Shown here: piece after piece, positions 2,624-58,626 of the stretch
Position numbering within the stretch: the stretch's first letter is position 1
Layout of the letters: each line of letters starts with the position of its first letter
Source of the DNA: an uncultured bacterium
GTDB lineage: Bacteria > Patescibacteriota > Microgenomatia > Levybacterales > UBA12049
Length of the DNA: 64,000 nucleotides
Direction: 5' to 3'
Assembly (NCBI GenBank): GCA_963826535.1
Contig: CAWGXL010000011.1
Span: forward strand, 192,809 to 256,808
Notes under the pieces: model-generated
Databases searched by the model: none
The model's input: the letters and a program-made list of their open reading frames with translations, nothing else
Told to the model about the DNA's origin: nothing
Translations under genes and position numbers: made by a program

Positions 2624-4935
2624 TAATAAATAGAAATAAATTATTTTCAGGGATTTTGCTATTTGCATTGATAACCGGTCTCTTGGTTTTTTTCGATATC
2701 AAATATTTATATCTTAGAGCGATTTTTTCGTTTCTCTTTTTGACATTTGTTCCGGGTTTTTTGGTAATGTTGATGCTTAAAGTCAGAAGAGTCGGTGGTT
2801 GGGAATATATAGCTTATACACTCGGTCTAAGTCTTTCATATTTAATATTTGTCGGTCTGGCTATAAACTGGATATTTCCGTGGCTGCAAATTACCGATAA
2901 GCCTCTTGCTTTGACGCCATTACTTTTCAGCTTCTATGTAACTCTCTCACTTGTCGGACTTATCGGTTATATACGAAATAAAAATATACCGTTTACAGTG
3001 AAATTCCCAAAGCTGGATCGTGTAAGTAATATCTTATTTATAATCCCTACCACTTTTCCAATACTGAGTATATTAGGAGCGAATACTCTTAATAACGGAG
3101 GTTCAAATTATTTAACAATGCTAACGCTTGGCGGAATTGCCGCTTTTGTTCTATTTGTAGTTTTAATAAGGGATAAATTAAAAGAAAACATTTACCCATG
3201 GTCAATTTTGATGATTTCCCTTTCATTGCTGTTAATGTTCTCTATGAGAAGCTGGCACATAATTGGGTGGGACATTAATCAGGAGTATGAAATGTTTAAA
3301 ACAGCAGCGCAAAACTTCCGCTGGAGCATGTCGGACTTTCCCAGACAGCCTTACAATGCCTGCTTGAGCATAACTATTCTTCCGACAATTCTGAATGCTT
3401 TTATGGATATCAATGACGAATATATTTTCAAACTATTTTCTCAAATTATTTTTTCATTTTCCGGCCTTGCGGTTTTCCTATTTCTTAAAAAATACGCGTA
3501 CAATGTCATTATATATTTGGCAAGTTTCTTCTTCATTGCCCAACCACAGTACATAATGGAAATGCCAACTCTTGTAAGGCAAGAGTTTGCCCTTCTTTTT
3601 TTCATTCTGTCCTTACTTGTTTTGTTTAACAACGCTATTAATTCAAAATTAAAAAATACCTTGTTTATTATTTTCGGGTTCTCAACTGTTGTTTCGCATT
3701 ACTCAACAGCATATATAACTACGACACTTTTTACCTTGATATATTTGGGAAGTTTAATGTATAGAAAAACTGAGAATAAGAAAATAATTTCTACTTTTTA
3801 CCGGAAACTTAGATTGAAAGGACGTAATAAGTTCGATAAGGCAAAGTATCATCTCAATGGGTTTTTGGTTATTGCACTCATTGTCTTCTCTTTTCTATGG
3901 CTTAATCAAGTAACAAAGGTATCGGATAGCTTGGTTGAATTGAGTCAGAAAACGCTCGTTAATATGGGAAGAATGTTTAGCGATGATATGCGAGTAGAAC
4001 ATACTTCTTTACTTAACCAATTCAATATACTTTATAAACCAAAAGATCAAGGAGAACTTTTAAAAAGTTATTTTAATAAAATAAATCTTGATTCTAGAGA
4101 TAGAAACTCAAGTTTATATTATCCTGCTTCACAATATTCATCATATAAACCTAAAGTTATTAATTCGAAAATTTTACCTTCAAATATTGACCCCGATTTT
4201 ACGCCCAAAATATTCATATTCTTAAGAATTATTGAAGTCTCCATCAAGTTATTGTTATTGGTCGGAATTTATTATATGGTAGTTACTAAATATAAAAACC
4301 AAAAGATGAATATAGAAATGGTGTTAATGATTATACTATCCGCATTTATAGTGGGAGCTGTGACCGTATTGCCGGTAGTATCTCTGCATTATCCTATTGA
4401 AAGATTATACCAACAAGCTTTAATTGCACTTTCCCTGCCGACAGTATTGGGGAGTTTATTTATTTTCAGACGTTTAGTAAATGAAAAAGTGGCAATAAGG
4501 ATTTCTGCTGTAATTCTGATAATACACTTTCTGTACGTATCGGGATTTATCCCACAGCTTGTTGGGGGATCAGAATCGCATGTAACTTTGAATAATTTTG
4601 GAAGAATATATGATCAAGTTCATACCAATGATGCTACCGTAATGTCAATTACTTGGTTGGCCAAAGAAAATAAACAACAAGCTCTTGTTCAGGCCGATAT
4701 ACACGGTCATTGGAGATTACAAGCATACGCCCTTACAAAAGATCCTTTGGCAGAGGTTATTCCACAAGTAATAAAGAAAGATGCATACGTCTATTCAAAT
4801 TACATAAATACAACTAAAAAACAAGGCTTCATAGCAGAGCTTGGCGTTGACATAGCGTATAACTTCCCTACTCTTTTTTTGAGCGAGAATAAAAATAAAA
4901 TTTATTCAAACGGTAGCACGGAGGTATTTAAATGA
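2620..4935 (+). CDS. Large polytopic membrane protein, more than 12 predicted TM helices, possibly an oligosaccharide polymerase-like or DUF2206-type protein
   Basis: 771 aa with hydrophobic helices throughout the N-terminal 600 aa. It lies inside the glycan locus and has overlapping start/stop with its neighbours. No specific motif was recognised. Confidence 0.35.
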   Translation: MIINRNKLFSGILLFALITGLLVFFDIKYLYLRAIFSFLFLTFVPGFLVMLMLKVRRVGGWEYIAYTLGLSLSYLIFVGLAINWIFPWLQITDKPLALTPLLFSFYVTLSLVGLIGYIRNKNIPFTVKFPKLDRVSNILFIIPTTFPILSILGANTLNNGGSNYLTMLTLGGIAAFVLFVVLIRDKLKENIYPWSILMISLSLLLMFSMRSWHIIGWDINQEYEMFKTAAQNFRWSMSDFPRQPYNACLSITILPTILNAFMDINDEYIFKLFSQIIFSFSGLAVFLFLKKYAYNVIIYLASFFFIAQPQYIMEMPTLVRQEFALLFFILSLLVLFNNAINSKLKNTLFIIFGFSTVVSHYSTAYITTTLFTLIYLGSLMYRKTENKKIISTFYRKLRLKGRNKFDKAKYHLNGFLVIALIVFSFLWLNQVTKVSDSLVELSQKTLVNMGRMFSDDMRVEHTSLLNQFNILYKPKDQGELLKSYFNKINLDSRDRNSSLYYPASQYSSYKPKVINSKILPSNIDPDFTPKIFIFLRIIEVSIKLLLLVGIYYMVVTKYKNQKMNIEMVLMIILSAFIVGAVTVLPVVSLHYPIERLYQQALIALSLPTVLGSLFIFRRLVNEKVAIRISAVILIIHFLYVSGFIPQLVGGSESHVTLNNFGRIYDQVHTNDATVMSITWLAKENKQQALVQADIHGHWRLQAYALTKDPLAEVIPQVIKKDAYVYSNYINTTKKQGFIAELGVDIAYNFPTLFLSENKNKIYSNGSTEVFK

Positions 4936-5987
4936 ATATAGGAATCGTTCTGGTTTCGGATGAGTGGGCAGGAGCCGAAAGAGTCGTATATAATTTGTCA
5001 AAAAACTTGTCAAAAATAAAGGGAGTAAGCGTTACTCTTTTTATTAATCAGGAAGTTTTTAAATTATACGATAATGTCGGAGTTAAAAGAGTAAATATTG
5101 GTAAATATTCAAACTCAAATAAGCTCGTACACTTAATAAGCTACCTTATTCTAAAAAGAAATCTAAAAAAAGAGATTAAAAAAAGAAATATTGATGTATT
5201 AAATTCACATATGGAAATGTCCTATTTAATTTCCCCCAAAGAGAATTTAATCATAGTAAATCATGGGGATGATATTAAAAACCTTCTAAATCCTCCAAGC
5301 TTATTTAGCAAACTATTTATTCAAAGATTATCTAAGTCCCGTTTTGATGCATGTGAAAAAATAATCAGCGTTTCTAATTGGCAAAAACAAAAATTACCAA
5401 AAATATATAAAGAAAAAACCGTCGTAATTCCAAATGGCATAAACACAAAGGTGTTTAAAAAATTAAGAAACATTAAGCAAGAAAAAGCCATTCTTTTTAC
5501 AGGTAGATATATTGAGAGAAAAGGGTTCTTGGAGGTTTTGAAAGTTGCCGGTAAGCTTCCTCAGTACAAGTTTTGGTTCGCAGGATTCGGACGTTTGGAA
5601 AATAAAATTAATTTACCCAATACGGTCAATCTGGGATTTAAAAATACAGATGAATTGGTCAAATTATACAACCAAGTAGAGCTTTGTATTTTTCCGGCAC
5701 TCTGGGAGGCCTTTCCACTCTGTGGATTAGAAGCTATGGCATGCGGCAGAGCTGTTATTGCAACTCCTTTGGGATTCTCGGAATATATTGAAAACGGAAA
5801 AGACGGACTTATTGTCCCTTCAAAGAATACTGAGGTTTTAAAAAAAACTATTTTGCAAGTGATGAACGACAGCAAATTGAGAAAAAAATTGGAGAAAAAT
5901 GCAAGGGCAAAAGCTTCTCAATATTCATGGGACAAAGTGGCAGTCTCTTATTTGAAAGTGTTTACAAATATTAAATATGGAGATTAA
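4932..5987 (+). CDS. Glycosyltransferase family 4
   Basis: C-domain motif EAFPLCGLEAMACGRAVIATPLGFSEYIENGKDGLIV. Translationally coupled to flanking genes. Confidence 0.75.
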   Translation: MNIGIVLVSDEWAGAERVVYNLSKNLSKIKGVSVTLFINQEVFKLYDNVGVKRVNIGKYSNSNKLVHLISYLILKRNLKKEIKKRNIDVLNSHMEMSYLISPKENLIIVNHGDDIKNLLNPPSLFSKLFIQRLSKSRFDACEKIISVSNWQKQKLPKIYKEKTVVIPNGINTKVFKKLRNIKQEKAILFTGRYIERKGFLEVLKVAGKLPQYKFWFAGFGRLENKINLPNTVNLGFKNTDELVKLYNQVELCIFPALWEAFPLCGLEAMACGRAVIATPLGFSEYIENGKDGLIVPSKNTEVLKKTILQVMNDSKLRKKLEKNARAKASQYSWDKVAVSYLKVFTNIKYGD

Positions 5988-7113
5988 AAATATATTTCAA
6001 AAATTGTCCATTAATAATAATCTCCATAAACCCGGAAATTATAGCTATACTGCCGATGTAATTCGCGTAATTGCAATAATGATGGTTCTCGCAATACATG
6101 TTTTTGGAACAATTATTTATTATAAAAATTATTTTGGAAGTTCAATTTGGTGGTTTGCAAACATTATTAATTCAATCGCACAAATATCCGTACCCTTATT
6201 CGTCATGCTTTCCGGGTATTTATTGTTGAGTAGTTCGAAATCCTATGGCGTGGGGGAGTTCTATAAAAGAAGAATAAAAAGAATAGGAGTGCCTTATATT
6301 GCATGGGCCATAATTTATTTAATACTGCAGTACGGCTTTTTAAGGGAGAGATTTTCTTTCCCCGACGTTTTAAGCAGAGTAATTAATGGTTCGGCATATT
6401 TTCATTTATACTTTGTAAATATAATCCTCGGTTTGTACCTCATTACTCCGGTACTCAAGAAATTTATAAGTTCGACTTCATCTAACATTCAGAGATACAT
6501 TTTAGCCGGGCTTTTTTCCGGTGTCTTTTTAATATATTTAATTAATTATATATTACGGCCGGCAGTTGACCCTTTTGACGGTTTAGGTATATTTATTCCC
6601 TACATTCCTTATTACCTTGCGGGGTATTATCTAAGGAATATAAAAATTTCAAAAAGAGCATTTTACTTAAGTTCTATTTTCGTTGTTGTCTTAATATCTC
6701 TAACGACAATATTGAATTATAAAAATATGCAGGCATTCGGTTGGGTAAACGTATTCAGTCCGAGAGGAGGATTTGATTATTTTTATCAGCATTTCAGTCT
6801 CAATGTAATCCTGATGTCCCTATTAGGATTCGTATTGTTGCATAATATGCCTTCACTATTCTCAAAAATAAGGACTCCGCTACTTAAAAAATCCGTATTT
6901 TTCGTTGCACCTCTCGTCTTTGGCATATATTTAATTCACCCCTTACTTATTGTTTTTATCGAACGCGTCCTTAAAGACCACGGCTTGTTATATTTCCAGG
7001 GAGAGCTCGTTTGGGCATTGTCATTCTTAAAATTTGTAATCGTATTTTTGATCTCCGGCTCAATTGTATATTTCGGCAAGAAAATTAAATACATAAATAA
7101 TATTTTTGGATGA
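5977..7113 (+). CDS. Acyltransferase family 3 (membrane O-acyl/acetyltransferase, OatA-like)
   Basis: About 10 TM helices. N-terminal VIAIMMVLAIHVFG and overall architecture are typical of acyltransferase_3. Confidence 0.65.
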   Translation: MEIKNIFQKLSINNNLHKPGNYSYTADVIRVIAIMMVLAIHVFGTIIYYKNYFGSSIWWFANIINSIAQISVPLFVMLSGYLLLSSSKSYGVGEFYKRRIKRIGVPYIAWAIIYLILQYGFLRERFSFPDVLSRVINGSAYFHLYFVNIILGLYLITPVLKKFISSTSSNIQRYILAGLFSGVFLIYLINYILRPAVDPFDGLGIFIPYIPYYLAGYYLRNIKISKRAFYLSSIFVVVLISLTTILNYKNMQAFGWVNVFSPRGGFDYFYQHFSLNVILMSLLGFVLLHNMPSLFSKIRTPLLKKSVFFVAPLVFGIYLIHPLLIVFIERVLKDHGLLYFQGELVWALSFLKFVIVFLISGSIVYFGKKIKYINNIFG

Positions 7114-16727: not shown

Positions 16728-16829
16728 CTTGTCATTGCGAGGAGGAGATCCTTCGCTATGCTCAGGACAGGCTGCGCAATCTCTATAATAAAGATTGCCA
16801 CGCTCCTTATCAGTCGCTCGCAATGACAA
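16728..16829. repeat. GC-rich long imperfect hairpin: 13-bp perfect inverted repeats TTGTCATTGCGAG / CTCGCAATGACAA extended by GGAGGAG/CTCCTT, with a loop of about 60 nt
   Basis: Seen directly, 33-134 nt downstream of the lexA stop. Local GC is well above the surrounding sequence. Confidence 0.4.
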
Positions 16830-17093: not shown

Positions 17094-17096
17094 GTA

Positions 17097-17223
17097 AATT
17101 CAAAATCCAAAGCACCAAATTCCAAATAAATTCTAATATCAAAATTCCAAATTAGAAACGTTTTGGATTTTGTTATTTGTATTTTGATATTATTTAGGAT
17201 TTGTAATTTTGGATTTGTAATTT
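17097..17223. repeat. AT-rich extended palindromic intergenic element, copy 1, abutting the dinB start codon
   Basis: A-rich left arm (AAAATCCAAA...), central AAACGTTT, T-rich right arm with tandem GGATTTGTAATTT x2. About 80% identical to 32361-32490. Confidence 0.45.
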
Positions 17224-18459
17224 ATGCAGTTAGCAATAAATAAAAATCCTCCGCTCATAATGCACATGGACCTCAACTCTGCCTTTGCTACTATTGAGCA
17301 GCAGGCTAATCCCCTGCTTCGCGGTAAGCCGATGGTGGTTGCCGCATATAATAGTCCTCGAGGATGCGTACTGGCGGCATCGATTGAAGCGAAACGATTT
17401 GGGATTAAAACCGGCATGAGAGTACAAGACGCAAAGCTATTATATAATAATTTGGTTGTCCGTACCCCGGATCCCACAAAATACCGGGCGGTTCATCTTA
17501 TGTTCATGCGGATTCTTCAGGATTACTCCCCTCACGTTACTCCGAAGTCGATTGATGAAGCAGTGATTGATTTTACCGATACATATGACTTAAATAAATG
17601 CGACCTTATTGATATTGGCCGCGAGATTAAACAACGATTCAGAAGAGAGATTGGCGAGTGGATTTTTTGTTCGATTGGCATTGGACCTAATAGGTTTTTG
17701 GCAAAACTGGCGGCATCCATGCACAAACCTGATGGCCTGGCAGTTATAGATCACACAAATCTAATTGGTACGTATAGTAGGGCAAAACTTATTGATTTGC
17801 ATGGCATTAATACGCGGTATCAGGCGCGACTGAATGCTTATGGCATTTTTACGCCGGTTGATTTTTTCCATGCTTCACTTGAGAAGTTGCAGAAACAGAT
17901 TTTTAGAAGCATCTTGGGGTACTACTGGTACACGCGACTTCGGGGATGGGAAATTGACGCAGTTGATTTTAAAAGGAAAAGTTATGGAAATAGTTATGCT
18001 TTGAAGAAACAAACAAATGATTCAAAGGTACTAGCTAAACTCTTGATGAAATTGTGTGAGAAAACGGGCAGGCGGCTGCGGAGAAATGGCTATTGCGGCC
18101 AAGGAGTCCATGTAGGATGCTTATATACAGATCACACATATTGGCATATGGGGAGAAAATTTGATCTTCCTGTGTATACAACGCAAGAAATTTATTTTCG
18201 AGCGCTTACGCTTATGAGTCTATCAGGATATAAAAAGAAAGTGGCGGAACTGGCAGTGAGGGTGTATGATCTTATACCAAATTCGGATGAACAGCTTAAA
18301 ATTTTCTCTTCGCCTACTCATGCGGTATCAAAAGCAATGGACGAGATTAATGATACTTATGGAGAGTTTGCGGTTACGTCGGGGCTCCTAATGGGGATGG
18401 GGAATACAATTATTGACAGGATCTCTTTTGGCGGAGTGCGAGAGCTTGAAGATATTTGA
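17224..18459 (+). CDS. dinB: DNA polymerase IV (Y-family translesion polymerase)
   Basis: MHMDLNSAFATIEQQANPLLRGKPMVVA is the IMS/UmuC-DinB N-terminal signature. Length and thumb/little-finger regions fit. Confidence 0.85.
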   Translation: MQLAINKNPPLIMHMDLNSAFATIEQQANPLLRGKPMVVAAYNSPRGCVLAASIEAKRFGIKTGMRVQDAKLLYNNLVVRTPDPTKYRAVHLMFMRILQDYSPHVTPKSIDEAVIDFTDTYDLNKCDLIDIGREIKQRFRREIGEWIFCSIGIGPNRFLAKLAASMHKPDGLAVIDHTNLIGTYSRAKLIDLHGINTRYQARLNAYGIFTPVDFFHASLEKLQKQIFRSILGYYWYTRLRGWEIDAVDFKRKSYGNSYALKKQTNDSKVLAKLLMKLCEKTGRRLRRNGYCGQGVHVGCLYTDHTYWHMGRKFDLPVYTTQEIYFRALTLMSLSGYKKKVAELAVRVYDLIPNSDEQLKIFSSPTHAVSKAMDEINDTYGEFAVTSGLLMGMGNTIIDRISFGGVRELEDI

Positions 18460-21799: not shown

Positions 21800-24130
21800 T
21801 TATTGAACGATGTAGGTGACTTTTCCCTCAGATGAAACGTTTAGCCAATAAAATTTCCGGGTTGGGTAGGCTGAGCGCATTTGGGCAATAGCAACTTGAG
21901 AAGGAGCATACGCAAAGAGGACGTTACTCTGCCCCTTTGGATCATTCATTGCAGCAAGGATATGATAAAACAAATTCCAATCCTGAGTTAAGACAATCGC
22001 GTTCTGTAATTTATTATTGTATACGGGCGTCGTATCTAGTTTTGAATAATTAGGAAGTTCTAAAAAATGATAGTAAAGCTGCAAATGTCTTGGCGTATAA
22101 TACACTAGATTATAGAGTAAAAAGATAGCCACTAACAAAATTACCGGCCAAGCTAACTTGATTTGTTTTAGTTTTACAGTGGAAATGACCCAATTATTAA
22201 GCACAATTATTCCACGTGCAGTTAAGAACACGAGAAATGGCAATACTTCAAAGAGATGACGCGGCCCAATAGCAATACCATGATAATAAAATGGTATCTG
22301 TGTTACAAAAGTCATGATGGCGATTATTAAGCACAGATAGTCAAAGCGGTTAGCTTTTTGAAGTAAAAAAGGGATAGCAATAAATCCTAAGGTAAATGCA
22401 TATGGCCATCCGAATAGTTCGAATTGTATGCTTGTCATTAATTGATCAAGACTTACCAATCCGGCTGCGACTGTGTGCTCCCCAAAATGTCCGATATTTT
22501 TGCCAAATCCATATATATCCGATGAGGAATGCAACACTTTTGGCGTGAGGAACATATTGCCTGTCTGAAGATGATTATATAAAAGATATAAAAAAACAAA
22601 AAAGAAAAAAATAATTGTATATATTCCCACAATACGTATCAGCTTTTTTTTACTTATAACTAAACTTGCATTACTATGCGTTGACTTTTTAATGACTGGG
22701 AAAAAATGGATAAGAAAAATGCCGACAGCACAAATTCCTCCTATAACTATTGCTGCAAGCTCACGTGTCAAAAAGGCAAACCCTAAACATGCTGCGGATA
22801 ATATTATATAACGATATAGTATTTCGCCTGATTTTGCTTTTCTGCAAAATACCTGCCAAAAATAACTCATGAAGACCAGGAAAAACAGGCAAACAGTATG
22901 ACTTAAATATGATGCAGCCTGGAAACTATAAAAAGGTGAGAAGGCTACAAGCCCAAGGGCTAATATACCTGTTGGCCTGCCAAACCATTCTTTGGCTAAA
23001 AGATATATTCCAAAAAGGGATGCTACTCCCAGAACCGGCGTAACAATCCAGGGCATGTGTATTAACATTCCAAGAGCAAGGATCAGTGAGGTTCCGGGCG
23101 GGAAAATCATAAACCAATGATTGTCATGCATAACCATAAATGGGCTTCTCAACCAAATGTATTCCGGTGTTGCCGGAAGAGAAAGCTGGCCAAGAGCAAA
23201 TATCTTTGCTTGTGAGTAATACGCCAGCTCATCCAGAATGTGCGGCATAGATTGGAATTCATATACGGAGATAAAAAGCGTATATATTAAAGATGCCATT
23301 AATAAAATAATTACAAAAACAGTGAACAATTGGGAGGACTTGCGTAATAAGCGGTTGGTATATTTTCCTAAATGGTTAGTGTTAAATACATGGGAGACAA
23401 TTGGCCTGCCTATATAGGCTGCCAGTAAACAGCCAAGGCAGAGCAGAAAGCTAACCAGTAATATCCGGGCCAGTGAAATAAGATTCTCTCCGAGGAAGGG
23501 GCCGGGATCTCTGGGAAAGTATGTTTGATAAATATTTTGGTCCTCTCTGTCCGGAATAGAGGCAAATACTTTTAAAGTTCTATCATTCCGATTTAGAGAT
23601 ACCTTATAACTTGTTTTATTATTGGTAATAAACTGCAGGCTTATTTCTTTTACAGGATAGAACAGAGAGATTTGAATGTCTGTAAATTTTGAAATTTCCG
23701 GAAGTGTAATTGGAGAATCTGTGGCCGGTGATTGTGCATAATATATTTCTTTATGTGTCTCAGCATTAAAAACACGTAAATCCTGCCATTTATTGTAAGC
23801 ACTACCTCCCCTCATCCAATCAGATAGTTTGTAATAAAAAGAATTAGAAAGTGACTGAAAGTATGCAGCTTCATAATTGTGATTAGTTATTGAGTCTGAT
23901 CCATCAATTTGAAATTCATGTGCCAGCGGGTCCGGCTTTTCTAAAAATAATTGTGTTGTACTTGCCGCATCAAATGGAAGAGGAATTGTATTCCCATCAA
24001 TTAATAACCGTGCATTATTTTGTCTTATCTCTAATTTAAAATGTATAGCCGCAAAAGAAACACCGATACTGTACAAAATTAGAATAAAAATAAATACGCT
24101 TGTGAATATGATAATTTTCTTCATTACCAA
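21800..24130 (-). CDS. GT-C fold membrane glycosyltransferase (ArnT/PMT-like) with a large N-terminal extracytoplasmic domain
   Basis: 776 aa. N-terminal about 200 aa soluble after a signal anchor. Then a TM core with an HILDELAYY (DE) motif. Confidence 0.5.
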   Translation of the reverse strand: MVMKKIIIFTSVFIFILILYSIGVSFAAIHFKLEIRQNNARLLIDGNTIPLPFDAASTTQLFLEKPDPLAHEFQIDGSDSITNHNYEAAYFQSLSNSFYYKLSDWMRGGSAYNKWQDLRVFNAETHKEIYYAQSPATDSPITLPEISKFTDIQISLFYPVKEISLQFITNNKTSYKVSLNRNDRTLKVFASIPDREDQNIYQTYFPRDPGPFLGENLISLARILLVSFLLCLGCLLAAYIGRPIVSHVFNTNHLGKYTNRLLRKSSQLFTVFVIILLMASLIYTLFISVYEFQSMPHILDELAYYSQAKIFALGQLSLPATPEYIWLRSPFMVMHDNHWFMIFPPGTSLILALGMLIHMPWIVTPVLGVASLFGIYLLAKEWFGRPTGILALGLVAFSPFYSFQAASYLSHTVCLFFLVFMSYFWQVFCRKAKSGEILYRYIILSAACLGFAFLTRELAAIVIGGICAVGIFLIHFFPVIKKSTHSNASLVISKKKLIRIVGIYTIIFFFFVFLYLLYNHLQTGNMFLTPKVLHSSSDIYGFGKNIGHFGEHTVAAGLVSLDQLMTSIQFELFGWPYAFTLGFIAIPFLLQKANRFDYLCLIIAIMTFVTQIPFYYHGIAIGPRHLFEVLPFLVFLTARGIIVLNNWVISTVKLKQIKLAWPVILLVAIFLLYNLVYYTPRHLQLYYHFLELPNYSKLDTTPVYNNKLQNAIVLTQDWNLFYHILAAMNDPKGQSNVLFAYAPSQVAIAQMRSAYPTRKFYWLNVSSEGKVTYIVQ

Positions 24131-25947
24131 TTAAATGTGGGTTGAACTTTTTGGAAGATCATTATTTTGGGATGATCGTATACGGTAAAGGATTCATCGG
24201 CTTCTGAATCATTTATGGGAATCTTGAGAATTGGGAGGGTCGGATAGTTTGTGAACTCCGCAATTTTTTGGAAGCCTAATGAGCCATTAAATAGATCCTG
24301 ATAATATTCAGCAGTCAAAGTATAGCATTTGTCCTGGGGTAGGGACTTGCAGTCGGTTAATTTTTGCAAGGGGGTGTAGAGTCTATTGGAAGCAATGATA
24401 ATAAAGTCAGTTTGGGCAAGTATTTGATTGATATTTTGCCATTTTGCCGGCGTGTCAGGATCGTACAGCGGCAGAGTCACAATCCGATAATTTTGACCTC
24501 CGTATATGGGTACCGGATCATCCCAATGTTCCTGGGCTATAACTTTTCCGGCGGGGATGAATTCATTGATCCAAAGGGTCGCAGTTGTGCGTGGGTTAGG
24601 TACGGTGTAGGTACGGATAAAACTTATTGGCCAGATTAAAATAAGGGTAAATGGTATGGCGTAAAGGGTAAAGCGTAATAAACGGTTTTTTAGGTAATGT
24701 TTGAGATATTTCAGGAACATATATGCAGCCAGTGCGCCAAATATACACAACATGGGATAGAGAGGGAGCATATAGCGCATAAAGCCAATTGCGAATCTTC
24801 CGACTATTAAAAAATATGCAAGGAAGAAGATGGCTATAATAACTTCCAATGCCCATTTTCCCTGCCTCATAGGAGGAATGGCATGCAACTTGCGGGAAAA
24901 CGCATGCCGGAAAAAATAAATAGTGCCTATAAAGGAAATGATCCCCAACAGTGGCCCGAGACCCCAGAGGATGATGTTTTTAATTTCATAAAGATATGGT
25001 ATTTTACCTACATATTGAAGCGTATAGGGGAAGGTAAAGGCACTGCGCGTCATTTGTGATTGTTCCAGAGTTTGTCTCCAAAATTCCGGGAAATCAATTA
25101 TCGCGTATGGCGAGCAAATGGCAAAGACGAGGAAGGCTGCAATACTTATTATAAACGAAAAAGAAAAAACATGATTTATAGAAGCCGGAAGGCGAGATAA
25201 CCACAGACGCGGTTTGTGCGGCTGTCTGAGGATAAGCAAAGCAAAAGGCGCGATTAATGCCGCCGCGATCGGGAAGAACAGAACAAGAGCGCTTGTTTTG
25301 GTTGCCAATGCAAGACCTAAAAAAATACCTATAAAAAGGGCGTGTTTTATGGTTGGTTTTTCGTAAAATAAAATAAGCCGGTATAAAGCTGCCAGGATGA
25401 AAAATGTCAGAAGTGTATCTACCGCATAGAAATGAGAAAGCTGGATGGGTAGAACGCTTACCGCATAGAAAAAGGAGGCTATATATCCGACTTTTGCCCC
25501 AAATAGTTTTCTGCCAAGATAAAAGACCAAAGCTAACGTTCCCAGATCGAACAATGCTGAGGTGAACCGACCCGCAATATTGATCAAGTCATAACCGGTA
25601 AAAAACGGATTGAATGCTCCAAGTCCTTCACCTATAAATTTCAATAGATAAAACGGGAAGCTGCCGTAGGCGAAAAAATGCGGATTAAATGGGCTATCCG
25701 GAGAGAGAAAAGAATTCAGATCAGCGGGAAATTGTATTTTTACAACTGTCATAATAATTGCCCGTTCGTCCGGATGTAAATGATATCCCTGATCCCAATT
25801 GAGACCATAGAAGCGAAAAAGTGCTCCGAATAATAAAATAAGCAGCAATAGTTTTTTTTGTTGGTTTAATTTCATGTTTAAATTAATTTTTAATTTTTTC
25901 ATAGATATATACAACCGGCCTGTCAAAGACATTTGCCGTTTCTTCAA
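24124..25947 (-). CDS. GT-C fold membrane glycosyltransferase (ArnT/PMT-like)
   Basis: LNWDQGYHLHPDER matches the loop-1 DE motif of GT39/GT83. 607 aa polytopic. Clear paralog of 25883-27625. Confidence 0.6.
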   Translation of the reverse strand: MKKRQMSLTGRLYISMKKLKINLNMKLNQQKKLLLLILLFGALFRFYGLNWDQGYHLHPDERAIIMTVVKIQFPADLNSFLSPDSPFNPHFFAYGSFPFYLLKFIGEGLGAFNPFFTGYDLINIAGRFTSALFDLGTLALVFYLGRKLFGAKVGYIASFFYAVSVLPIQLSHFYAVDTLLTFFILAALYRLILFYEKPTIKHALFIGIFLGLALATKTSALVLFFPIAAALIAPFALLILRQPHKPRLWLSRLPASINHVFSFSFIISIAAFLVFAICSPYAIIDFPEFWRQTLEQSQMTRSAFTFPYTLQYVGKIPYLYEIKNIILWGLGPLLGIISFIGTIYFFRHAFSRKLHAIPPMRQGKWALEVIIAIFFLAYFLIVGRFAIGFMRYMLPLYPMLCIFGALAAYMFLKYLKHYLKNRLLRFTLYAIPFTLILIWPISFIRTYTVPNPRTTATLWINEFIPAGKVIAQEHWDDPVPIYGGQNYRIVTLPLYDPDTPAKWQNINQILAQTDFIIIASNRLYTPLQKLTDCKSLPQDKCYTLTAEYYQDLFNGSLGFQKIAEFTNYPTLPILKIPINDSEADESFTVYDHPKIMIFQKVQPTFNW

Positions 25948-27625
25948 AACTAAAGACCGGACTATTTAAATAGGTAATCCTACAAAAAATATCACATGGC
26001 GTAGCGTATATTTTTTGAAACCCGTTCATATGAGCGAATAATGCTGAATAAAAGGAGTACGCGAGGGGATAAGTTATTGGATCGTTAAGGCGAGTCTTCA
26101 GGATACGCTGGCTGGGCAGAATAATGTAATCTGAAACTGCCAATTGCTGTGCCAATCTGTCGGTCGTGTATTCAGGTGAATTATTATCTAAATCATAAAA
26201 GTTAAAGAGGGTTATATTAGGAAACGAATCATTAAATGGCGTGATGCCCATGTCAAACACTTCACTGAGGATTGCGGCATTTGATGGGACGTGTTGCAAG
26301 GCATAAATTTTAGCGGCGATGCGAGTGTCTGTTTGGATATAAGCAGTAATAAAATAGGAGATGGAAAATATGATGGTAATACAAACAAAAATCCCCCCAA
26401 CCCCCTTAAATAAAGGAGGTGTCCGTAGGACGGGAGATTTGCTCATTGCAATAAATTCTGAAAGCGAGAGGCTCATAATCAGGTACATAAATGGTAGTGT
26501 TGGTACCATATAGCGGATCCATTTTGCGTAAAGAAATGCCTGGGAAAGAAATAGTATTAAGAAGAAAATATTAAGCATTAAGTATTTGCTATTCTTTGTT
26601 TTTATGGAAATAAAAATTAAGTAAAAGAATGATGGTATAAATAAACATGTTAATAACGGATTAAGAAGGAAGGGATAAATGTGAAGAAACTGAAAAACGA
26701 CGGGGACTACGTTTTTAAACTCTCCTGTATAGAAAACAGACAGCGTACCCAAGGCTACGCGTGATTCATAAAACATGCTGCCATAGAACTCAGAGAAGTC
26801 GAAATAGACGAAGGGATTGGTGATAAAAAAGACAAGAATGGATACTGCGCAAAACAGGATGCAATTGCGGATAAAGTTAAAAATGCGGCGCACGCGATGC
26901 TCTTTATTTATAGGATAAAAATGAGAAAGGAAAAGCGCTAAAACCGGAAGCGGCAATAATGCTATGTGGGATACTTTGGTTGCAATTGCTGCGCCAAAGA
27001 CTAAAGCTGTAACGAGAAGAGGCAGGAAATCGAGCCTCCGCAAGAGACGGAGAGTAAACAGAAAAAGTAAAACACTTAGCAAGGTCAGCCACATTTCGAA
27101 GGTGCCGAAATGGGCATATTGAATTAAACCTGTACTAAATGTCGCAAAAAAAGCTGCTATCAGGCCGGTCTGATTACTCAAATCCCCCGCCTTCGGCACC
27201 CCCTTTAATAAAGGGGGTTGGGGGGATTTATTGGCACTTAGATATATTTTCTTTCCGATGAAAAACATAAGCGGGATTAGCAAGAGGGAAAATAAGGCGG
27301 AAAAAAATCTGCTAATTAAAATTGCTAGCTCGAAAGACACGGTAAAAATTGTCATATCATCTGCGGATAATTGAAAGGACAGGGGAAGAGATAAATAATT
27401 AACAAAAACGCCGGTGAGGTATATCGTGTAAATCGGCAATGATCCGTAGGCAAAAAAATGCGGGTTCAACTGGTCGGGGAATTTCAGTCCGGAGACTGCG
27501 GAGGCAATATTGCGTTCGTCAGGATGGAAATAAAATGGCGCACCCCAGTTGAGATTATAGAACCGAAGGATTGCTCCAATAATTATCAGAAGACACAGCA
27601 AGAAAAGAATATTTTTTTTCTTCAT
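25883..27625 (-). CDS. GT-C fold membrane glycosyltransferase (ArnT/PMT-like) carrying two in-frame palindromic-element insertions
   Basis: NLNWGAPFYFHPDER aligns residue by residue with the upstream paralog. Extra segments SANKSPQPPLLKGVPKAGDLSNQT and SPVLRTPPLFKGVGG are encoded by GC-rich palindromes. Confidence 0.6.
   Translation of the reverse strand: MKKKNILFLLCLLIIIGAILRFYNLNWGAPFYFHPDERNIASAVSGLKFPDQLNPHFFAYGSLPIYTIYLTGVFVNYLSLPLSFQLSADDMTIFTVSFELAILISRFFSALFSLLLIPLMFFIGKKIYLSANKSPQPPLLKGVPKAGDLSNQTGLIAAFFATFSTGLIQYAHFGTFEMWLTLLSVLLFLFTLRLLRRLDFLPLLVTALVFGAAIATKVSHIALLPLPVLALFLSHFYPINKEHRVRRIFNFIRNCILFCAVSILVFFITNPFVYFDFSEFYGSMFYESRVALGTLSVFYTGEFKNVVPVVFQFLHIYPFLLNPLLTCLFIPSFFYLIFISIKTKNSKYLMLNIFFLILFLSQAFLYAKWIRYMVPTLPFMYLIMSLSLSEFIAMSKSPVLRTPPLFKGVGGIFVCITIIFSISYFITAYIQTDTRIAAKIYALQHVPSNAAILSEVFDMGITPFNDSFPNITLFNFYDLDNNSPEYTTDRLAQQLAVSDYIILPSQRILKTRLNDPITYPLAYSFYSALFAHMNGFQKIYATPCDIFCRITYLNSPVFSFEETANVFDRPVVYIYEKIKN
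26388..26434. repeat. GC-rich miniature palindromic element, copy B (plus orientation), inside the GT-C CDS
   Basis: AAATCCCCCCAACCCCCTTAAATAAAGGAGGTGTCCGTAGGACGGG. Outer stem, a CCCCC/GGAGG hairpin and a CCGT-AGG-ACGG hairpin. Confidence 0.5.
27181..27229. repeat. GC-rich miniature palindromic element, copy A (inverted orientation), inside the same CDS
   Basis: Reverse complement AAATCCCCCCAACCCCCTTTATTAAAGGGGGTGCCGAAGGCGGGGGATTT matches copy B over the first about 33 nt. Substitutions in the small 3' hairpin preserve pairing. Confidence 0.5.
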
Positions 27626-27674: not shown

Positions 27675-30323
27675 TCAAAAGAGAGGGAATATATCAAAAA
27701 AGCTAGCGTCCGGGTTCTCGCCCCTACATTCTGGTTCCGGAGTGGATTTGTCGTCCCAGCAAGGGATATTCTGCGAATCTTTATTGTCTTTTACCCAAGT
27801 AGACGTTTGCTCGGGTTTCTCACCCTTGCATTCTGGTTCCGGAGTAGCTTTGTTGTCCCAGCAAGGGATATTCTGCGAATCTTTATTGTCTTTTACCCAA
27901 TTGTCCTTGACAGGCAGTGCGGGTTGATCGGGTTGCGCAGGCGGCTGGGGTTTATTCACTTCACATTCCTGTTTGGGTGTTTCAAGGTCGTCCCAACATG
28001 TGCCGCCTGCTCCGGATGGATCCGGCTTTTGTACCCAATTTCCTCCGGCGGGTTTTGCAGGTTGCGCAGGCTTGTCAGGTTGCGGCTTGACAGGATCCGC
28101 GGGTGGTACGTATCCCTTCTGACCAGGAGCGCGTAGGTTGCCCGGGGGATCCGATTCGCATTCTTTTACTTCAGTGGTTGTTGTGTCGTCCCAGCAGCCA
28201 CCTTCATATTCTACATAACTTGGTTTCGGCTGGCCGTCGGGACCGGGCTGAAACTCGCTGGCGGAGCAACCCGTTATATTTAAGGCGGTTCCGGCACTAT
28301 CAATACTTTTCCGTGCGGCAGTACATGAAGCTTCAGTATCACCGCACTTTTCTGCTGATGTATTTCCATCCTTATTCGTATAAGAGAAGCACCATCGTGT
28401 TTGTTTGGGAGGAAGTGCTTGATCGCAAGGCACAACTTTATTCACACCATTTATTTCCTTATTACACCATTTCGCCTCTGGCTCACTTTTGGTACTAGCC
28501 GGTATCTGGCAACGCGGGTCGTTGGGATCCTTGCAAATGCCGGGTATTTTTAAGATATCAACTACGATTAGCTGAAAAATAACAAAGGAGAAAATAATAA
28601 ATATAAGTCCAACTATAGCCGCGATTAACTGATCACGTCCCTGTTGTACTTGTTCCGGTTTGCCTGATGAGGTAATTAGTTTATAGCCGGCAAAAATCAT
28701 AAGAAGCAGCGCTATTCCTCCAGCGAAACCGAGGAGGATAGTAAAGAATCTTAATACGAACGCGGCCGGATCGGTGGGGATATCCTTTGTGTCATCCGTA
28801 TCGCCGGAAAAGGAAGTACGGATTTTTTTACACCCCCCTGTCTCCAACCACTCGACACATGGGGGAGAAGGATTAATAATAGTAGTCGGTTTTGGAACAG
28901 TGGTCGGCTCAATGTATTGATTCGCGGTTTCTACATCAACAATACCCTGATCTACAAGTTTGGCTATAGTGTTGTCATCCAGGCCGGTAAGTCCAAACTT
29001 TTTCAGGACGCCTTTTACGTTATCTATAACTGATGGATCGCTGGCAACTCCGCCCGGTTGGCCGCAACCTCCCGATGACGGAGCGCTGCTGTTTCCGCTT
29101 GGTTGCGATGTGTTCCCGGTTGGGGCTTGTGCTTCCTTCCTACATAATGTAACCGTATGATTGACTGACTTGAATGCTTCTTTTTTATCATCGCACAGCG
29201 ACTGAGTAGCGTCGCACTGCACGCCTTTCACACCCCAGCGATTTGTCGCTGTAAAACAAAACAACTCAGAGACCGATGGCTTAGTGGATGTGCCTTCGCA
29301 TTCGTTAATATTCGGAGTCAGAATGTTATCGCAATCGCTGGGCGGACTGGTGGTGTCGGCCAAAACGTCTCCTCCCCTAGGCCCGGTTTGGGTGCCTTGC
29401 ACGCCGGTTGAGTTTTGTGCGGGTTGTTCAACACAACCTGTGACCGTATGCTTGGCTACCTCAAATACCTTTCTCATACTAATGCAATCATCTTTAGTAG
29501 CGGAGCACTGAGGACCTTGTGCGCCAATCTCGGGTTGAGCTGTTGAATCGAAGCACCATTTTGGTTTGGCTCCACTTGGCGGAGTGTCCGAGCATTTTTC
29601 GACAATATTCGGAGTAACAGTACTATCGCATTTTTCATCTCCGCCTTCTGGCAAATTTTCTCCGCTTGGCGGCGGTTTGGCCGCGCCGGAGCCGGATTCG
29701 CCTCCACAAGTTATTGCCTTCATAATACCTTCTGGACTAAAAATACCTAAATCTTTGAGTTTGCCTACTGTACTGGAGGGTATCTTAACGCCAAACTGAC
29801 CCAGGAGAGAATGTATTGTGTCCTCTTGAGTAAAAATTCCCTGAAGCCCGCCCTGCAATATCCCTCCGAGACCGAGCGCACCCCCCACTTCGTCTACTAA
29901 AATATCTTTTAAACCCACGCCATTTAAAAATTTATCCATTATCGGCGATAATGACCCAAGACCGGCGTATCCCAAGATGCCCTTTGTTATAGCGCCATAG
30001 TTTTCCTGAGCTATGAAGTCATAAGTCTCTCTACCTACAGAATAGATTTCATGACCTGTTTTAACTGTTTCAATAATCCCCATCAATTGCTCGCTTTGCA
30101 GTACATAATCCTTTGCTTGTTTTACTAACCCCTGGGCTTGCAGTGCTAATTGCCCGATATCTTCTGTTAACCATTGAGCATTTGCCCGTTGAGGATATAA
30201 AAAATAAGAAGCTGCGGTTGAAAAAACTACCAAGGACAAGATAATTGCTATAAATAACTTTTTCACTCCTTCCAGCATGACAAAAAATGATAAAATTTGC
30301 AAGAGGAGTGCGAATCTTGACAA
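27675..30323 (-). CDS. Large secreted/membrane-anchored Cys-rich repeat protein with an internal VirB2/TrbC-pilin-like double-TM hairpin
   Basis: Signal peptide. Two 70-aa 8-Cys modules. Central segment FFTILLGFAGGIALLLMIFAGYKLITSSGKPEQVQQGRDQLIAAIVGLIFIIFSFVIFQLIVV has two hydrophobic helices split by a short basic loop. C-terminal tandem repeats WVKDNKDSQNIPCWD-K-TPEPEC. Nucleotide tandem repeat of about 90 bp at 27736-27905. Confidence 0.5.
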   Translation of the reverse strand: MSRFALLLQILSFFVMLEGVKKLFIAIILSLVVFSTAASYFLYPQRANAQWLTEDIGQLALQAQGLVKQAKDYVLQSEQLMGIIETVKTGHEIYSVGRETYDFIAQENYGAITKGILGYAGLGSLSPIMDKFLNGVGLKDILVDEVGGALGLGGILQGGLQGIFTQEDTIHSLLGQFGVKIPSSTVGKLKDLGIFSPEGIMKAITCGGESGSGAAKPPPSGENLPEGGDEKCDSTVTPNIVEKCSDTPPSGAKPKWCFDSTAQPEIGAQGPQCSATKDDCISMRKVFEVAKHTVTGCVEQPAQNSTGVQGTQTGPRGGDVLADTTSPPSDCDNILTPNINECEGTSTKPSVSELFCFTATNRWGVKGVQCDATQSLCDDKKEAFKSVNHTVTLCRKEAQAPTGNTSQPSGNSSAPSSGGCGQPGGVASDPSVIDNVKGVLKKFGLTGLDDNTIAKLVDQGIVDVETANQYIEPTTVPKPTTIINPSPPCVEWLETGGCKKIRTSFSGDTDDTKDIPTDPAAFVLRFFTILLGFAGGIALLLMIFAGYKLITSSGKPEQVQQGRDQLIAAIVGLIFIIFSFVIFQLIVVDILKIPGICKDPNDPRCQIPASTKSEPEAKWCNKEINGVNKVVPCDQALPPKQTRWCFSYTNKDGNTSAEKCGDTEASCTAARKSIDSAGTALNITGCSASEFQPGPDGQPKPSYVEYEGGCWDDTTTTEVKECESDPPGNLRAPGQKGYVPPADPVKPQPDKPAQPAKPAGGNWVQKPDPSGAGGTCWDDLETPKQECEVNKPQPPAQPDQPALPVKDNWVKDNKDSQNIPCWDNKATPEPECKGEKPEQTSTWVKDNKDSQNIPCWDDKSTPEPECRGENPDASFFDIFPLF

Positions 30324-32360: not shown

Positions 32361-32490
32361 AAACTCAAAATTCAAAGCACCAAATCACAAATAATATCAA
32401 AATTCAAATTTCCAAAATTCAAAACGTTTTGAATTTATTGCTTTGAACATTTGAATTTATTTGGGATTTGTAATTTTGAATTTGTAATTT
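32361..32490. repeat. AT-rich extended palindromic intergenic element, copy 2, abutting the glnA start on the opposite strand and upstream of the UbiA gene
   Basis: AAAATTCAAAACGTTTTGAATTT core. Tandem GATTTGTAATTTTGAATTTGTAATTT. Aligned with 17097-17223. Paired changes tccaaa/tttgga to ttcaaa/tttgaa. Confidence 0.45.
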
Positions 32491-32645
32491 ATTTTTGGGG
32501 ACTTCGATGTCACCGAATTTTAGTGAGGACTTCTTTGTCTTCTTGTCTTCGTAATGAAGATAATGATATTAAAGCACATTAATATTGCTGTGTCAATAAT
32601 TATAAACAAGACTTATGCTACAATTTCTTTATAGAAAAACTGCGT

Positions 32646-48128: not shown

Positions 48129-48247
48129 CTGGCAGGGTGAGTCTTTTTGGTTTTAATCAGATGCAGGTGATTGTAAGTGGGGAGTATTCTGAGTGCAATA
48201 AAGCGATTACGATTGACAATCAATCCAATATACAACTGCTCAGGTAA
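48129..48247. repeat. About 120-bp direct repeat, copy 1, upstream (minus-strand sense) of the Cas4-like nuclease gene
   Basis: GGTGAGTCTTTTTGGTTTTAATCAGATGCAGGTGATTGTAAGTGG ... GCGATTACGATTGACAATCAATCC. About 90% identical to 49093-49213 with small non-triplet indels. Confidence 0.6.
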
Positions 48248-48322
48248 CCACAGCAAGTATATTGGGAATATAAAGCTACCAAGCTAATTCAAGTCGAAGG
48301 TTGTAATTTAAGCGGCATTATT

Positions 48323-49092: not shown

Positions 49093-49213
49093 CTGGCAGC
49101 AGGGGTGAGTCTTTTTGGTTTTAATCAGATGCAGGTGATTGTAAGTGGAGTATTCTGCGTGCAATAAAGCGATTACGATTGATAATCAATCCAACATCCA
49201 ACTGCTAAGGTAA
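49093..49213. repeat. About 120-bp direct repeat, copy 2, between the hsdR 3' end and the small ORF/RusA cassette
   Basis: See copy 1. Contains the small hairpin GATTGA-TAA-TCAATC. Confidence 0.6.
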
Positions 49214-49312
49214 GTTCAACAAGTAAATATAGAATTATTTTATAAAGAAGAAAAGGTGCGAAGCTATTTCAGATGGATGGTGCAGTTATTTTAAATATTC
49301 GTTTTAATAATT

Positions 49313-57721: not shown

Positions 57722-57807
57722 ATATTATTCCCTTATTAACTTAAAACTGATCCTTATTATAACCGGTATTGGGATGTTTTGCGAGTTGATGTAATGATGG
57801 GTGTATC

Positions 57808-57912
57808 ACTTTGGAATATAGCTGGTAAAAATTTCTGAGCAGCTGTAGGCGTGGCAGACGATGCAGCTGTAATTGTAGTCTGCTAGTATTGCGTCGCGGT
57901 GGATTTTGTCGG
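57808..57912. repeat. About 104-bp direct repeat, copy 1: a duplicated 3' fragment of the CAP-domain gene, 35 codons plus stop
   Basis: Reverse-strand translation DKIHRDAILADYNYSCIVCHAYSCSEIFTSYIPK* versus the real C-terminus DKIHRDAILADYTYSCIACHAHNCSEIFTSYIPK*. About 90% nucleotide identity with 58629-58732. Confidence 0.6.
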
Positions 57913-58618: not shown

Positions 58619-58626
58619 TAACTATA

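Follow-up and report, generated by a model that had tools for sequence, protein, structure and literature searches.

Two short nested palindromes, termed elements A and B, lie in frame and in mutually opposite orientations within a glycosyltransferase gene in the window (the whole 64-kb stretch of DNA that was analysed). They are probably copies of a small palindromic element that is dispersed across bacterial phyla, here called the C-run family, and that is resident and translated in two inter-helix loops of the encoded protein. The family has perhaps spread together with nuclease genes of the DUF559 group.

Structure and location of the two elements

In each element, an outer stem (AAATCCCCC/GGGGGATTT) encloses two smaller structures, a hairpin (CCCCCTTTA..TAAAGGGGG) and a mini-hairpin whose loop is G-N-A (Table 1). 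Folding predicts a three-way structure for both, with negative z scores either as DNA (A, -18.6 kcal/mol, z = -4.0; B, -8.7 to -11.4 kcal/mol, z = -2.1 to -3.3) or as RNA (z = -3.0 for A and -3.4 for B). An earlier note on this DNA had rightly placed two palindromes within the coding sequence, but both limits are corrected here; because it cut element B at 26434, it missed the right arm of B, GGGAGATTT. The inverted 33-nucleotide match that it reported holds, with 91% agreement between the reverse complement of A and B, and the resulting inverted pair is separated by 775 nucleotides. The small 3' hairpin that it described is also found in both copies, but the better pairing is, for A, GCC-GAA-GGC and, for B, GTCC-GTA-GGAC. 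Selection on this hairpin, as the note supposed, is supported by the alignment of family members, where changes on both sides of the stem leave pairing intact in 20 of 20 cells and each of the four pairs covaries, a result reached by none of 500 shuffles.

The window contains two copies of the 17-mer AAATCCCCCCAACCCCC and no more, where 0.15 matches would be expected even if three mismatches were allowed. Both segments have a GC content and codon usage foreign to the host gene. A covariance model (R1), built only from 13 non-CPR copies of the family, matches A with 43.1 bits (E=6.6e-11) and B with 18.8 bits (E=0.004) in the 64-kb window, and nothing else there scores below E=0.2. Rfam covariance models give only noise on the elements (E >= 0.76, far under the gathering scores).

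Table 1. Positions of the host gene, its paralogs and the parts of elements A and B in the window
Feature	Position	Strand	Description
Host gene	25883-27625	-	GT-C fold glycosyltransferase of PMT_2 type, 580 aa; intact ORF, third of three tandem paralogs
Tandem paralogs	21800-24130, 24124-25947, 25883-27625
Net extra coding segment, site A	27182-27244	-	Residues 128-148, YLSANKSPQPPLLKGVPKAGD; ortholog consensus is KKL-KDExTGL
Element A	27180-27229	- (canonical orientation on coding strand)	50 nt, AAATCCCCCCAACCCCCTTTATTAAAGGGGGTGCCGAAGGCGGGGGATTT; from fold and covariance model R1
A outer stem arms	27180-27188 and 27221-27229		From fold
A hairpin 1	27198-27218		ACCCCCTTT / AAT / AAAGGGGGT on + strand; from fold
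A hairpin 2	27189-27197		GCC-TTC-GGC on + strand; 3-bp stem, G-N-A triloop; from fold and covariation
Element B	26389-26440	+ (canonical, antisense to gene)	52 nt, AAATCCCCCCAACCCCCTTAAATAAAGGAGGTGTCCGTAGGACGGGAGATTT; from fold and covariance model R1
B hairpin 1	26401-26419		CCCCCTTAAATAAAGGAGG; partly decayed, one stem mismatch; from fold
B hairpin 2	26421-26431		4-bp stem, G-N-A triloop; from fold and covariation

Both copies preserve the reading frame, as the earlier note had stated. Element A codes for K133-D148 (KSPQPPLLKGVPKAGD), and the reverse complement of B codes for K396-I412 (KSPVLRTPPLFKGVGGI). Alignment with the adjacent paralog also bears out the note's view that the element near 27181 adds a segment absent from that paralog, with about 21 residues more in the host protein. 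This extra segment is the loop joining predicted helices 98-131 and 146-162. Both inserts map to short inter-helix loops of the GT-C fold, which is predicted with confidence (pLDDT of 80 overall and of 60-73 at the inserts); in this model, the right arm of B encodes the first turn of the following transmembrane helix. The Pfam PMT_2 match begins only past insert A and reaches 20 bits, compared with a curated cutoff of 26.1. Promoter and terminator scans are at background level. The terminator scan flags A on the antisense strand only, four candidates were found in total versus 3.9 expected from shuffles, and both copies lie within the ORF. The + strand between A and B contains no ORF of at least 80 aa.

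A family of nested palindromes in many phyla

The C-run family is defined by an outer stem AAATCCCCCC/GGGGGGATTT around a hairpin CCCCCCTTTA-NN-AAAGGGGGG, as scored by R1, and A and B conform to this definition. Within the family, the inner hairpin takes the form CCCCCTTTA-NN-AAAGGGGG. A degenerate pattern search finds at least 120 stretches across phyla, where about 1-5 would be expected by chance; the matches listed come from Nitrospirota, Desulfobacterota, Chloroflexi, Planctomycetes, Margulisbacteria, CPR and others. The wider palindromic family that the earlier note suspected therefore exists, but it is found across phyla and is not special to one lineage.

Elements are 45-52 nucleotides long, and composites extend to about 105 nucleotides. 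All 45 full copies listed have the ends AAATCC.../...GGATTT, cyanobacterial copies have GATC.../...GATC ends, and many family members end in ATTTT. The flanks of the 45 full copies listed contain no direct repeat, target-site duplication or other insertion scar. One subfamily is marked by a second mini-hairpin with a G-N-A loop, located between hairpin 1 and the right arm, and its carriers are A, B, L148, L149, L145 and two copies in L029.

Family copies are mostly intergenic: 18% of the genome matches listed lie in long open frames, compared with 64% of random positions. Many copies nevertheless lie in frame within housekeeping genes, with examples in KdsB, AroC, PurL, CobQ, FolD and AckA-like genes, and those in KdsB and AroC correspond to gaps relative to solved homologs. 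A near-identical copy of A, hairpin 2 included, occurs in a FolD-like ORF of another organism. Three or four of the six frames of the element are open and encode a linker rich in Pro, Gly and Lys (..NPPxPP(L/F)xKGGxGG(F/I)..). Insertion into a tolerant protein loop would therefore let a copy survive in frame. One 8-kb Nitrospirae locus contains seven or eight copies. The element is rare in viral contigs, with 14 matches. A literature search by sequence, peptide and keyword returned no description of the C-run family or of a link between DUF559 and the repeat, and a match on GATCCCCCC concerned CRISPR repeats instead. The family is apparently undescribed until now.

Association with DUF559 genes

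DUF559, a domain of unknown function, denotes a very common family of nucleases. When 601 ORFs neighbouring the elements were clustered all against all, DUF559 was the sole recurrent family, occurring in five lineages, and there was no transposase cluster. Moreover, 54 of 120 close DUF559 homologs terminate inside an element, with the ending I/N-P-P-x-P-P, as compared with 0 of 120 controls. Copies flank the DUF559 gene in Calothrix, Pannus, Margulisbacteria and others, and flanking copies have been gained or lost between the near-identical strains L164, L165 and L166.

The 64-kb window contains no DUF559 gene, and the element is absent from 26 more distant DUF559 loci on viral contigs. The latter observation indicates that the link is confined to one DUF559 clade, and that it may represent co-residence rather than mobilisation. 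Carriage by phages is unsupported, in view of these viral DUF559 loci and of the rarity of the element in viral contigs. The Vsr/DUF559 group is known to contain a homing endonuclease (PMC3424549).

Genes of this clade run at their 3' ends into the element and have flanking copies. The most likely model of spread would be a unit of DUF559 nuclease plus palindrome, with solo palindromes as non-autonomous derivatives, as with RAYT and REP. The DUF559 link is a lead rather than an established mechanism. It is possible, and we propose it only tentatively, that the elements act as non-autonomous partners to the endonuclease genes of a single DUF559 clade (Vsr-like PD-(D/E)XK). Together they would form a selfish nuclease-plus-palindrome system, parallel to RAYT-REP but with a different mechanism, that passes from phylum to phylum and plants Pro/Gly/Lys linkers of 15-17 residues in proteins, among them the core enzymes KdsB, AroC, PurL, CobQ and FolD.

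Comparison with known palindromic repeats

Rickettsia palindromic elements (RPEs) are about 100-150 bp long and confined to Rickettsia. RPE-1 to RPE-10 are covered by Ogata et al. 2000 and by Claverie and Ogata 2003, as cited in PMC11602168 and PMC3733652. Both RPEs and C-run elements are dispersed palindromes with stable hairpins, found between genes and in frame in housekeeping ORFs, where the protein survives the short surface or loop peptide that is added. In neither kind is a target duplication obvious. The earlier note's proposal of RPE-like insertion is supported in this respect, since here and in other hosts a palindromic repeat lies in frame in an ORF and adds a peptide segment, with insert A a gap in nearly all orthologs listed and both inserts in inter-helix loops. 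However, the two kinds of element are set apart by their descriptions: C-run elements have C/G runs and occur in many phyla, and those in the present Patescibacteria-type host are 50 and 52 nucleotides long. A candidate partner gene (DUF559) is visible for C-run elements, whereas none is established for RPEs. Thus, the C-run element acts like an RPE but is not one, because it has about one third of the length and an apparently unrelated sequence.

REP and REPIN sequences, which carry a conserved GTAG or CGTC tetranucleotide as a tag at one end of a palindrome of 20-40 nucleotides, are associated with RAYT transposases in REPtrons (PMC3733652, PMC3116915). Both REP and C-run elements are short (20-50 nucleotides), imperfect palindromes that are mostly extragenic, occur singly, in pairs or in clusters, and flank a small nuclease-type gene. 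In both, copy number differs between strains (L164, L165 and L166 for the C-run family), and copies are occasionally found inside genes. In contrast to REPs, C-run elements have AAAT.../...ATTT ends (or the GATC ends of cyanobacteria) and lack the GTAG or CGTC tag; the only GTA is that in the loop of hairpin 2 of B. The flanked gene encodes a PD-(D/E)XK DUF559 nuclease rather than an HUH tyrosine transposase, and clustering of the 601 neighbouring ORFs gives no group of RAYT (IS200-like HUH Y1) or other transposase genes. Also, the repeat sequence is common to many phyla in the C-run family, whereas REPs are species-specific.

MITEs such as Correia/NEMIS, Nezha and RUP resemble C-run elements in being small, non-coding, structured and dispersed, and some are co-transcribed or translated with genes; for both, a protein acting in trans is assumed. 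However, MITEs have terminal inverted repeats from a parent IS together with a direct target-site duplication. In the C-run family, a single nested palindrome makes up the entire element, there is no known parent IS, and no such duplication is seen in the 45 full copies listed.

Other palindromes in CPR, of GTCAT...ATGAC types that encode HPEFISGS..MLKQVQHD and VIARSxATKQS, likewise place an outer stem around one or two hairpins and lie in frame in the same two GT-C loops, but they are A/T-richer and unrelated to C-run elements in sequence. One intergenic copy of a GTCAT...ATGAC-type palindrome is present in the window (16731-16827).

Orthologs and the history of the insertions

Of the 119 other orthologs listed, a single one has C-run peptides, and 118 of 120 lack the elements. 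The ortholog comparison that the earlier note suggested thus supports it as regards the peptides; at site B, however, the alignment gives no clear length excess, because loop length varies among orthologs. The lone other carrier, L001 (GCA_021733405.1), is from an independent assembly and its protein is 60% identical. Its copies, A' and B', occupy the same two codon positions in the same orientations as A and B. Measured against conserved flanks, the right ends of A and A' coincide to the codon, as do those of B and B', and B and B' are both exactly 52 nucleotides long. Across hairpin 1 plus the right arm, B and B' agree at 27 of 31 positions, whereas in the decayed left arm and hairpin 2 of B' only 10 of 21 positions are identical, and hairpin 2 is missing from A'. 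The frame in which hairpin 1 is read differs between A and A'.

Third-codon identity between the window gene and its L001 ortholog is saturated at 0.40, and the Gly codons common to the elements of both orthologs all remain GGG, which is rare elsewhere in the gene. The identity of the elements and the retention of GGG despite this saturation fit constraint or renewal better than passive relics. Recent transfer of a segment between the two orthologs was considered and is rejected, since identity at third positions stays near 0.4 throughout the gene. In a neighbour-joining tree, the window protein and P0003 (the L001 ortholog) are not sisters (44 of 200 bootstraps), so a single ancestral insertion requires that the tree be poorly resolved or that several losses occurred.

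Most likely, the insertions of A and B would predate the split from the GCA_021733405.1 lineage, as part of a family of nested palindromes that is dispersed through many bacterial phyla and mostly intergenic. The elements would now be resident and translated rather than actively moving in this gene. Mobility, which the earlier note had entertained, leaves no current sign in the window, because there are only two copies, in one gene, shared position for position with a 60%-identical ortholog; activity of the family in this lineage is unproven. It is instead conceivable, if somewhat unlikely, that the window and L001 lineages separately and fairly recently gained their copies at two hot or permissive loops, with the family active, or recently so, in these CPR. 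The tree that does not unite the two proteins and the frame difference between A and A' point this way, as does the conservation of the elements, which far exceeds that of synonymous sites. Additionally, A and B have common subfamily marks (a CAA spacer, and TG plus the GNA mini-hairpin) that recur in L148, L149 and L145 and are absent from the L001 counterparts, and at least two other palindromic families occupy these same two loops in nine other orthologs. Nevertheless, separate gains would have to account for right ends at an identical codon in both pairs and for the equal length and orientation of B and B', making four coincidences of position and orientation without a visible shared target sequence. 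Moreover, neither the 64-kb window nor the L001 contig (4.1 kb) contains a further copy.

The retention of canonical nucleotides in both lineages, including rare GGG and AAG codons, while synonymous sites are saturated, raises the question of whether A and B have been co-opted for a function of their own, such as an mRNA hairpin that affects translation or decay, a site of recombination or inversion, or needed protein loops. The start of a transmembrane helix is encoded by the right arm of B, and the 91% inverted pair could be a recombination substrate; among predicted inversion targets, there is an enrichment of DUF559-type genes that have inverted repeats on their flanks (PMC9881135). Co-option is quite improbable, however, given the 118 orthologs without the elements and the terminator scan at background. 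The decay of B' and the missing hairpin 2 of A' indicate that the full structure is not conserved. A programmed inversion between A and B is considered unlikely, since the ORF would not survive it; there is also no long + strand frame between the elements. Finally, the lack of a clear length excess at site B is what might be expected if there were no insertion, and the loops were coded by native palindromic sequence or arose as an assembly artefact. This reading is effectively refuted: the same 33-50 nucleotides recur in many phyla, both within unrelated genes and between genes, the covariance model made from copies in other phyla recognizes A, the segments are foreign to the gene in composition, and an independent assembly has elements at the same sites.

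Conclusions

In-frame insertion of palindromes has hitherto been regarded largely as a curiosity of Rickettsia. The same type of behaviour is now seen in a much smaller element, in Nitrospirota, Desulfobacterota, Chloroflexi, Planctomycetes, Margulisbacteria, cyanobacteria and CPR. Some genomes have about one copy per kilobase, and some single housekeeping genes contain several. Such inserts split Pfam domain matches, as in the host protein studied here, which falls under the PMT_2 cutoff; they also create spurious "PPLxKGG" ORFs and place strong hairpins and inverted pairs within genes. The consistent junction between one DUF559 clade and the palindrome provides a concrete candidate substrate for these nucleases, and could explain both the role of DUF559 and the spread of the repeat.

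The palindromes and their host gene

Elements A and B are two copies of a C-run nested-palindrome family. As the earlier note had proposed, they lie in frame and in opposite orientations (A sense, B antisense) within one intact 580-aa open reading frame, and they form an inverted pair that matches at 91% over 33 nt. Both palindromes described in that note exist, but their limits were slightly off: B was cut six bases short and its right arm was missed.

Features of the window
Feature	Position	Strand	Description
Element A	27180-27229	-	50 nt; coding strand AAATCCCCCCAACCCCCTTTATTAAAGGGGGTGCCGAAGGCGGGGGATTT
Element B	26389-26440	+	52 nt; AAATCCCCCCAACCCCCTTAAATAAAGGAGGTGTCCGTAGGACGGGAGATTT
GT-C glycosyltransferase gene	25883-27625	-	Host of A and B
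T4SS-pilin-type (PF18895) gene	27675-30323	-	882-aa Cys-rich protein; directly upstream of GT-C trio
Tandem repeats in PF18895 gene	27709-27900		102-nt units; third related unit near 28170
VIARSxATKQS-coding palindrome	16731-16827		Intergenic, ~97 nt; GTCATTGCGAGGAG...CGCTCGCAATGAC
AT-rich repeat blocks	17096-17225; 32361-32492		~130 nt, 76-91% identical, partly self-complementary; AAATTCCAAAT-like units
Direct repeat pair	48135-48269; 49103-49235		135 nt, 85-100% identical
Direct repeat pair	57804-57911; 58625-58732		108 nt, 91% identical

Each element adopts a three-way fold in which an outer stem (AAATCCCCC/GGGGGATTT) is combined with an inner hairpin 1 (CCCCCTTTA..TAAAGGGGG) and a small hairpin 2. 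Folded as DNA, A gives -18.6 kcal/mol (z = -4.0) and B is weaker (-8.7 to -11.4 kcal/mol, z = -2.1 to -3.3); RNA folding gives z = -3.0 and -3.4, respectively. Four of six frames are open in A and three of six in B, and the resulting peptides are rich in Pro, Gly and Lys.

Hairpin 2 is a subfamily mark, and its loop is G-N-A (GAA or GTA) in every copy that carries it. Its stems are GCC/GGC in A and locus L148, GCT/AGC in L149, TGAC/GTCA in L145, GTCC/GGAC in B, and GCCC/GGGC in two copies in L029. The suggestion that this structure is under selection is borne out in a sample of only five distinct sequences, registered by hand: 20 of 20 cells are paired, all four pairs vary on both sides, and none of 500 shuffles equals this. 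Among DNA mini-hairpins, C-GNA-G closed triloops such as d(GCGAAGC) stand out for their stability, which would suit a role for single-stranded DNA.

The host protein has a GT-C fold (a Foldseek search with the AF2 model retrieves STT3, PglB, ArnT and Pmt4), is encoded by one of three tandem PMT_2 paralogs, and has relatives named Levybacteria, Roizmanbacteria or Patescibacteria. The extra segment seen earlier relative to the adjacent paralog is recovered by alignment as about 21 additional residues at site A. When the window protein was aligned with 30 orthologs, almost every ortholog had KKL-KDExTGL at this site, versus KKIYLSANKSPQPPLLKGVPKAGDLSNQTGL in the window protein. C-run peptides are confined to two of the 120 listed proteins, the window protein and its ortholog P0003. 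In the predicted model, site A is the loop joining helices 98-131 and 146-162, and site B lies between helices 370-395 and 409-430, with the right arm of B coding for the beginning of the latter; pLDDT at the inserts is 60-73. Insert A splits the Pfam PMT_2 match, which covers the protein only from residue 150 onward; its 20 bits fall short of the 26.1 cutoff that both tandem paralogs clear.

A family found across phyla

A degenerate pattern (AAATCYCC-N(1-5)-CCCCCTTWA-N(1-4)-AAAGG) matched at least 120 stretches in 596 Gb, versus roughly 1-5 expected by chance according to our own estimate from pattern information. The matches listed come from Desulfobacterota, Nitrospirota, Dehalococcoidia, Chloroflexia, Scalindua and Brocadiia, Margulisbacteria, Melainabacteria, Thiomargarita, Bacteroidota, Burkholderiales, Peribacteria and others. 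Viral contigs have only 14 matches. A wider palindromic family, as had been anticipated for this lineage, thus exists, but it crosses phyla. In its canonical form it is a nested palindrome of 45-46 nt, AAATCCCCCC-AT-CCCCCCTTTA-NN-AAAGGGGGG-YRA-GGGGGGATTT; composites have two hairpins inside. Thirteen non-CPR copies were used to build a covariance model, which recovers A (E=6.6e-11) and B (E=0.004), with no other match below E=0.2 in the 64-kb window. Some matches (L003, L012, L026, L069) run into tandem arrays of CCTTTAnnAAAGGGGG plus spacer, with a period of ~30-35 nt and no right arm. In L043, a run similar to the AT-rich blocks of the window comes after the C-run element.

Only 22 of 123 genome matches (18%) lie in long open frames (150 nt or more to either side), versus 64% of random positions, so the element is mainly intergenic. 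In-frame copies occur in AroC-, PurL-, KdsB-, WaaA-, CobQ-, NifS- and GT1-like genes of Nitrospirota and other phyla, often two or three per gene, and the element peptides correspond to gaps relative to solved KdsB (1vh3) and AroC (1q1l). Locus L050 (Nitrospirae bacterium NC_groundwater_1560, 1366-7028) has 7-8 copies in 8 kb, about one per kilobase, several of them inside one CobQ-like gene. A metagenome scan found the window subfamily at 19 loci, including a near-identical match to A, with hairpin 2, within a FolD-like ORF (L148) and further in-frame copies in a radical-SAM/ELP3-like gene and an AckA-like gene.

A candidate partner gene

Clustering of 601 ORFs adjoining copies gave a single family that recurred across loci: DUF559 (PF04480), whose members are Vsr-like PD-(D/E)XK nucleases (L005, L029, L051, L084, L119). 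In L029, copies are located on either side of the DUF559 gene, which ends within one of them. Among 120 close homologs of this protein, many of them cyanobacterial, 54 have the C-terminus I/N-P-P-x-P-P(-L-x-K-G-G), which places the stop codon inside the element, always equally far past a conserved VC motif. The I/N-P-P-x-P-P motif is absent from all of 120 GT-C C-terminal tails and from the remaining 30-aa segments of the DUF559 proteins. Nested C-run palindromes flank the gene on both sides in Calothrix PCC 7716, Pannus brasiliensis, a 5.8-Mb JGI genome and the P0132 loci, and the cyanobacterial element ends are GATCCCCCC/GGGGGGATC.

Three near-identical strains (L164, L165, L166) encode the same DUF559 protein and differ in its flanking copies: one has an additional 155-nt unit upstream of the gene, and another has the full downstream composite, which is truncated in the other two. 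These differences are direct evidence of recent turnover. At these loci (L164, 1179-1921), the composite element and a ~50-nt spacer form the 155-nt unit, which is tandemly duplicated in one strain, and the element is bracketed by an imperfect ~35-nt direct repeat (CACAATGGAACTTGTT...).

The element is absent at 26 more distant DUF559 loci, all on viral contigs, and the 64-kb window contains no DUF559 gene. Predicted programmed-inversion targets show a 14-fold enrichment of DUF559 proteins (PMC9881135), and a group I intron homing endonuclease belongs to the Vsr/DUF559 group (PMC3424549); both reports point the same way as the link with the element. Judged from sequence, DUF559 is a candidate partner gene.

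Age of the insertions

The ortholog P0003 (locus L001, assembly GCA_021733405.1) is 60% identical to the window protein and has family copies, A' and B', at both sites; this independent assembly rules out an assembly artefact. Insertion before the split of the two lineages is favored because the copies match in site, orientation and right-end codon. B' has exactly the 52-nt length of B. Four observations complicate this reading. The ortholog tree is nearly a star in which the two proteins are not sisters (44 of 200 bootstraps). Third-codon identity between the genes is 0.40 throughout, with no rise close to the elements, and yet B and B' agree at 27 of 31 positions in hairpin 1 and the right arm, against 10 of 21 in the left part. 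Wherever the elements share a Gly codon it is GGG, which is found at one of 13 conserved Gly codons in the rest of the gene. Finally, A and B have subfamily marks in common, present also in copies from other organisms, that A' (AAATCTCCACCCCCTTTATCAAAGGGGGAAAGGGGGATTT, without hairpin 2) and B' lack.

Repeated insertion at the same two loops is a live rival. Nine other orthologs have other palindromic families there, so these loops tolerate or attract such inserts repeatedly. One family, coding for HPEFISGS..MLKRVQHD, is at site A in P0017 and P0034 and at site B in P0011; the other, coding for VIARSxATKQS, is at site A in P0028, P0039, P0044, P0079 and P0082 and at site B in P0025. The DNA of both has a GTCAT...ATGAC outer stem around one or two hairpins. 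Our preferred reading is that the insertions are old and have decayed in part in L001, with better preservation in the window.

Repeat-like peptides also occur in a periplasmic loop of the GT-C orthologs P0007 and P0011 (PLLLGEGQGEV, alignment columns 120-140) and in the FolD-like ORF of L148 (LRACPRPDRERGQREV, 1-230), and suggest yet another palindromic family. The two direct repeat pairs of the window, each with copies ~0.8-1 kb apart, are probably duplicated gene segments.

Relationship to known repeats

Rickettsia palindromic elements (RPEs) differ from A and B in size, sequence and host, and A and B are rejected as RPEs on these grounds. The lack of a GTAG or CGTC tag and of a RAYT gene rules out REPs, and the lack of any visible target duplication rules out MITEs. 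No Rfam family corresponds to the C-run nested palindrome, and no description was found in Rfam or the searchable literature. The nested-palindrome family of A and B is distinct and widespread. The RPE-like interpretation in the earlier note is supported by in-frame palindromes in the window gene and in genes of other phyla, and the family's behavior is RPE-like on a far wider taxonomic scale. In the window, A and B have the appearance of resident insertions, translated within two loops that tolerate them, and inserts like A can leave true family members looking unannotated.
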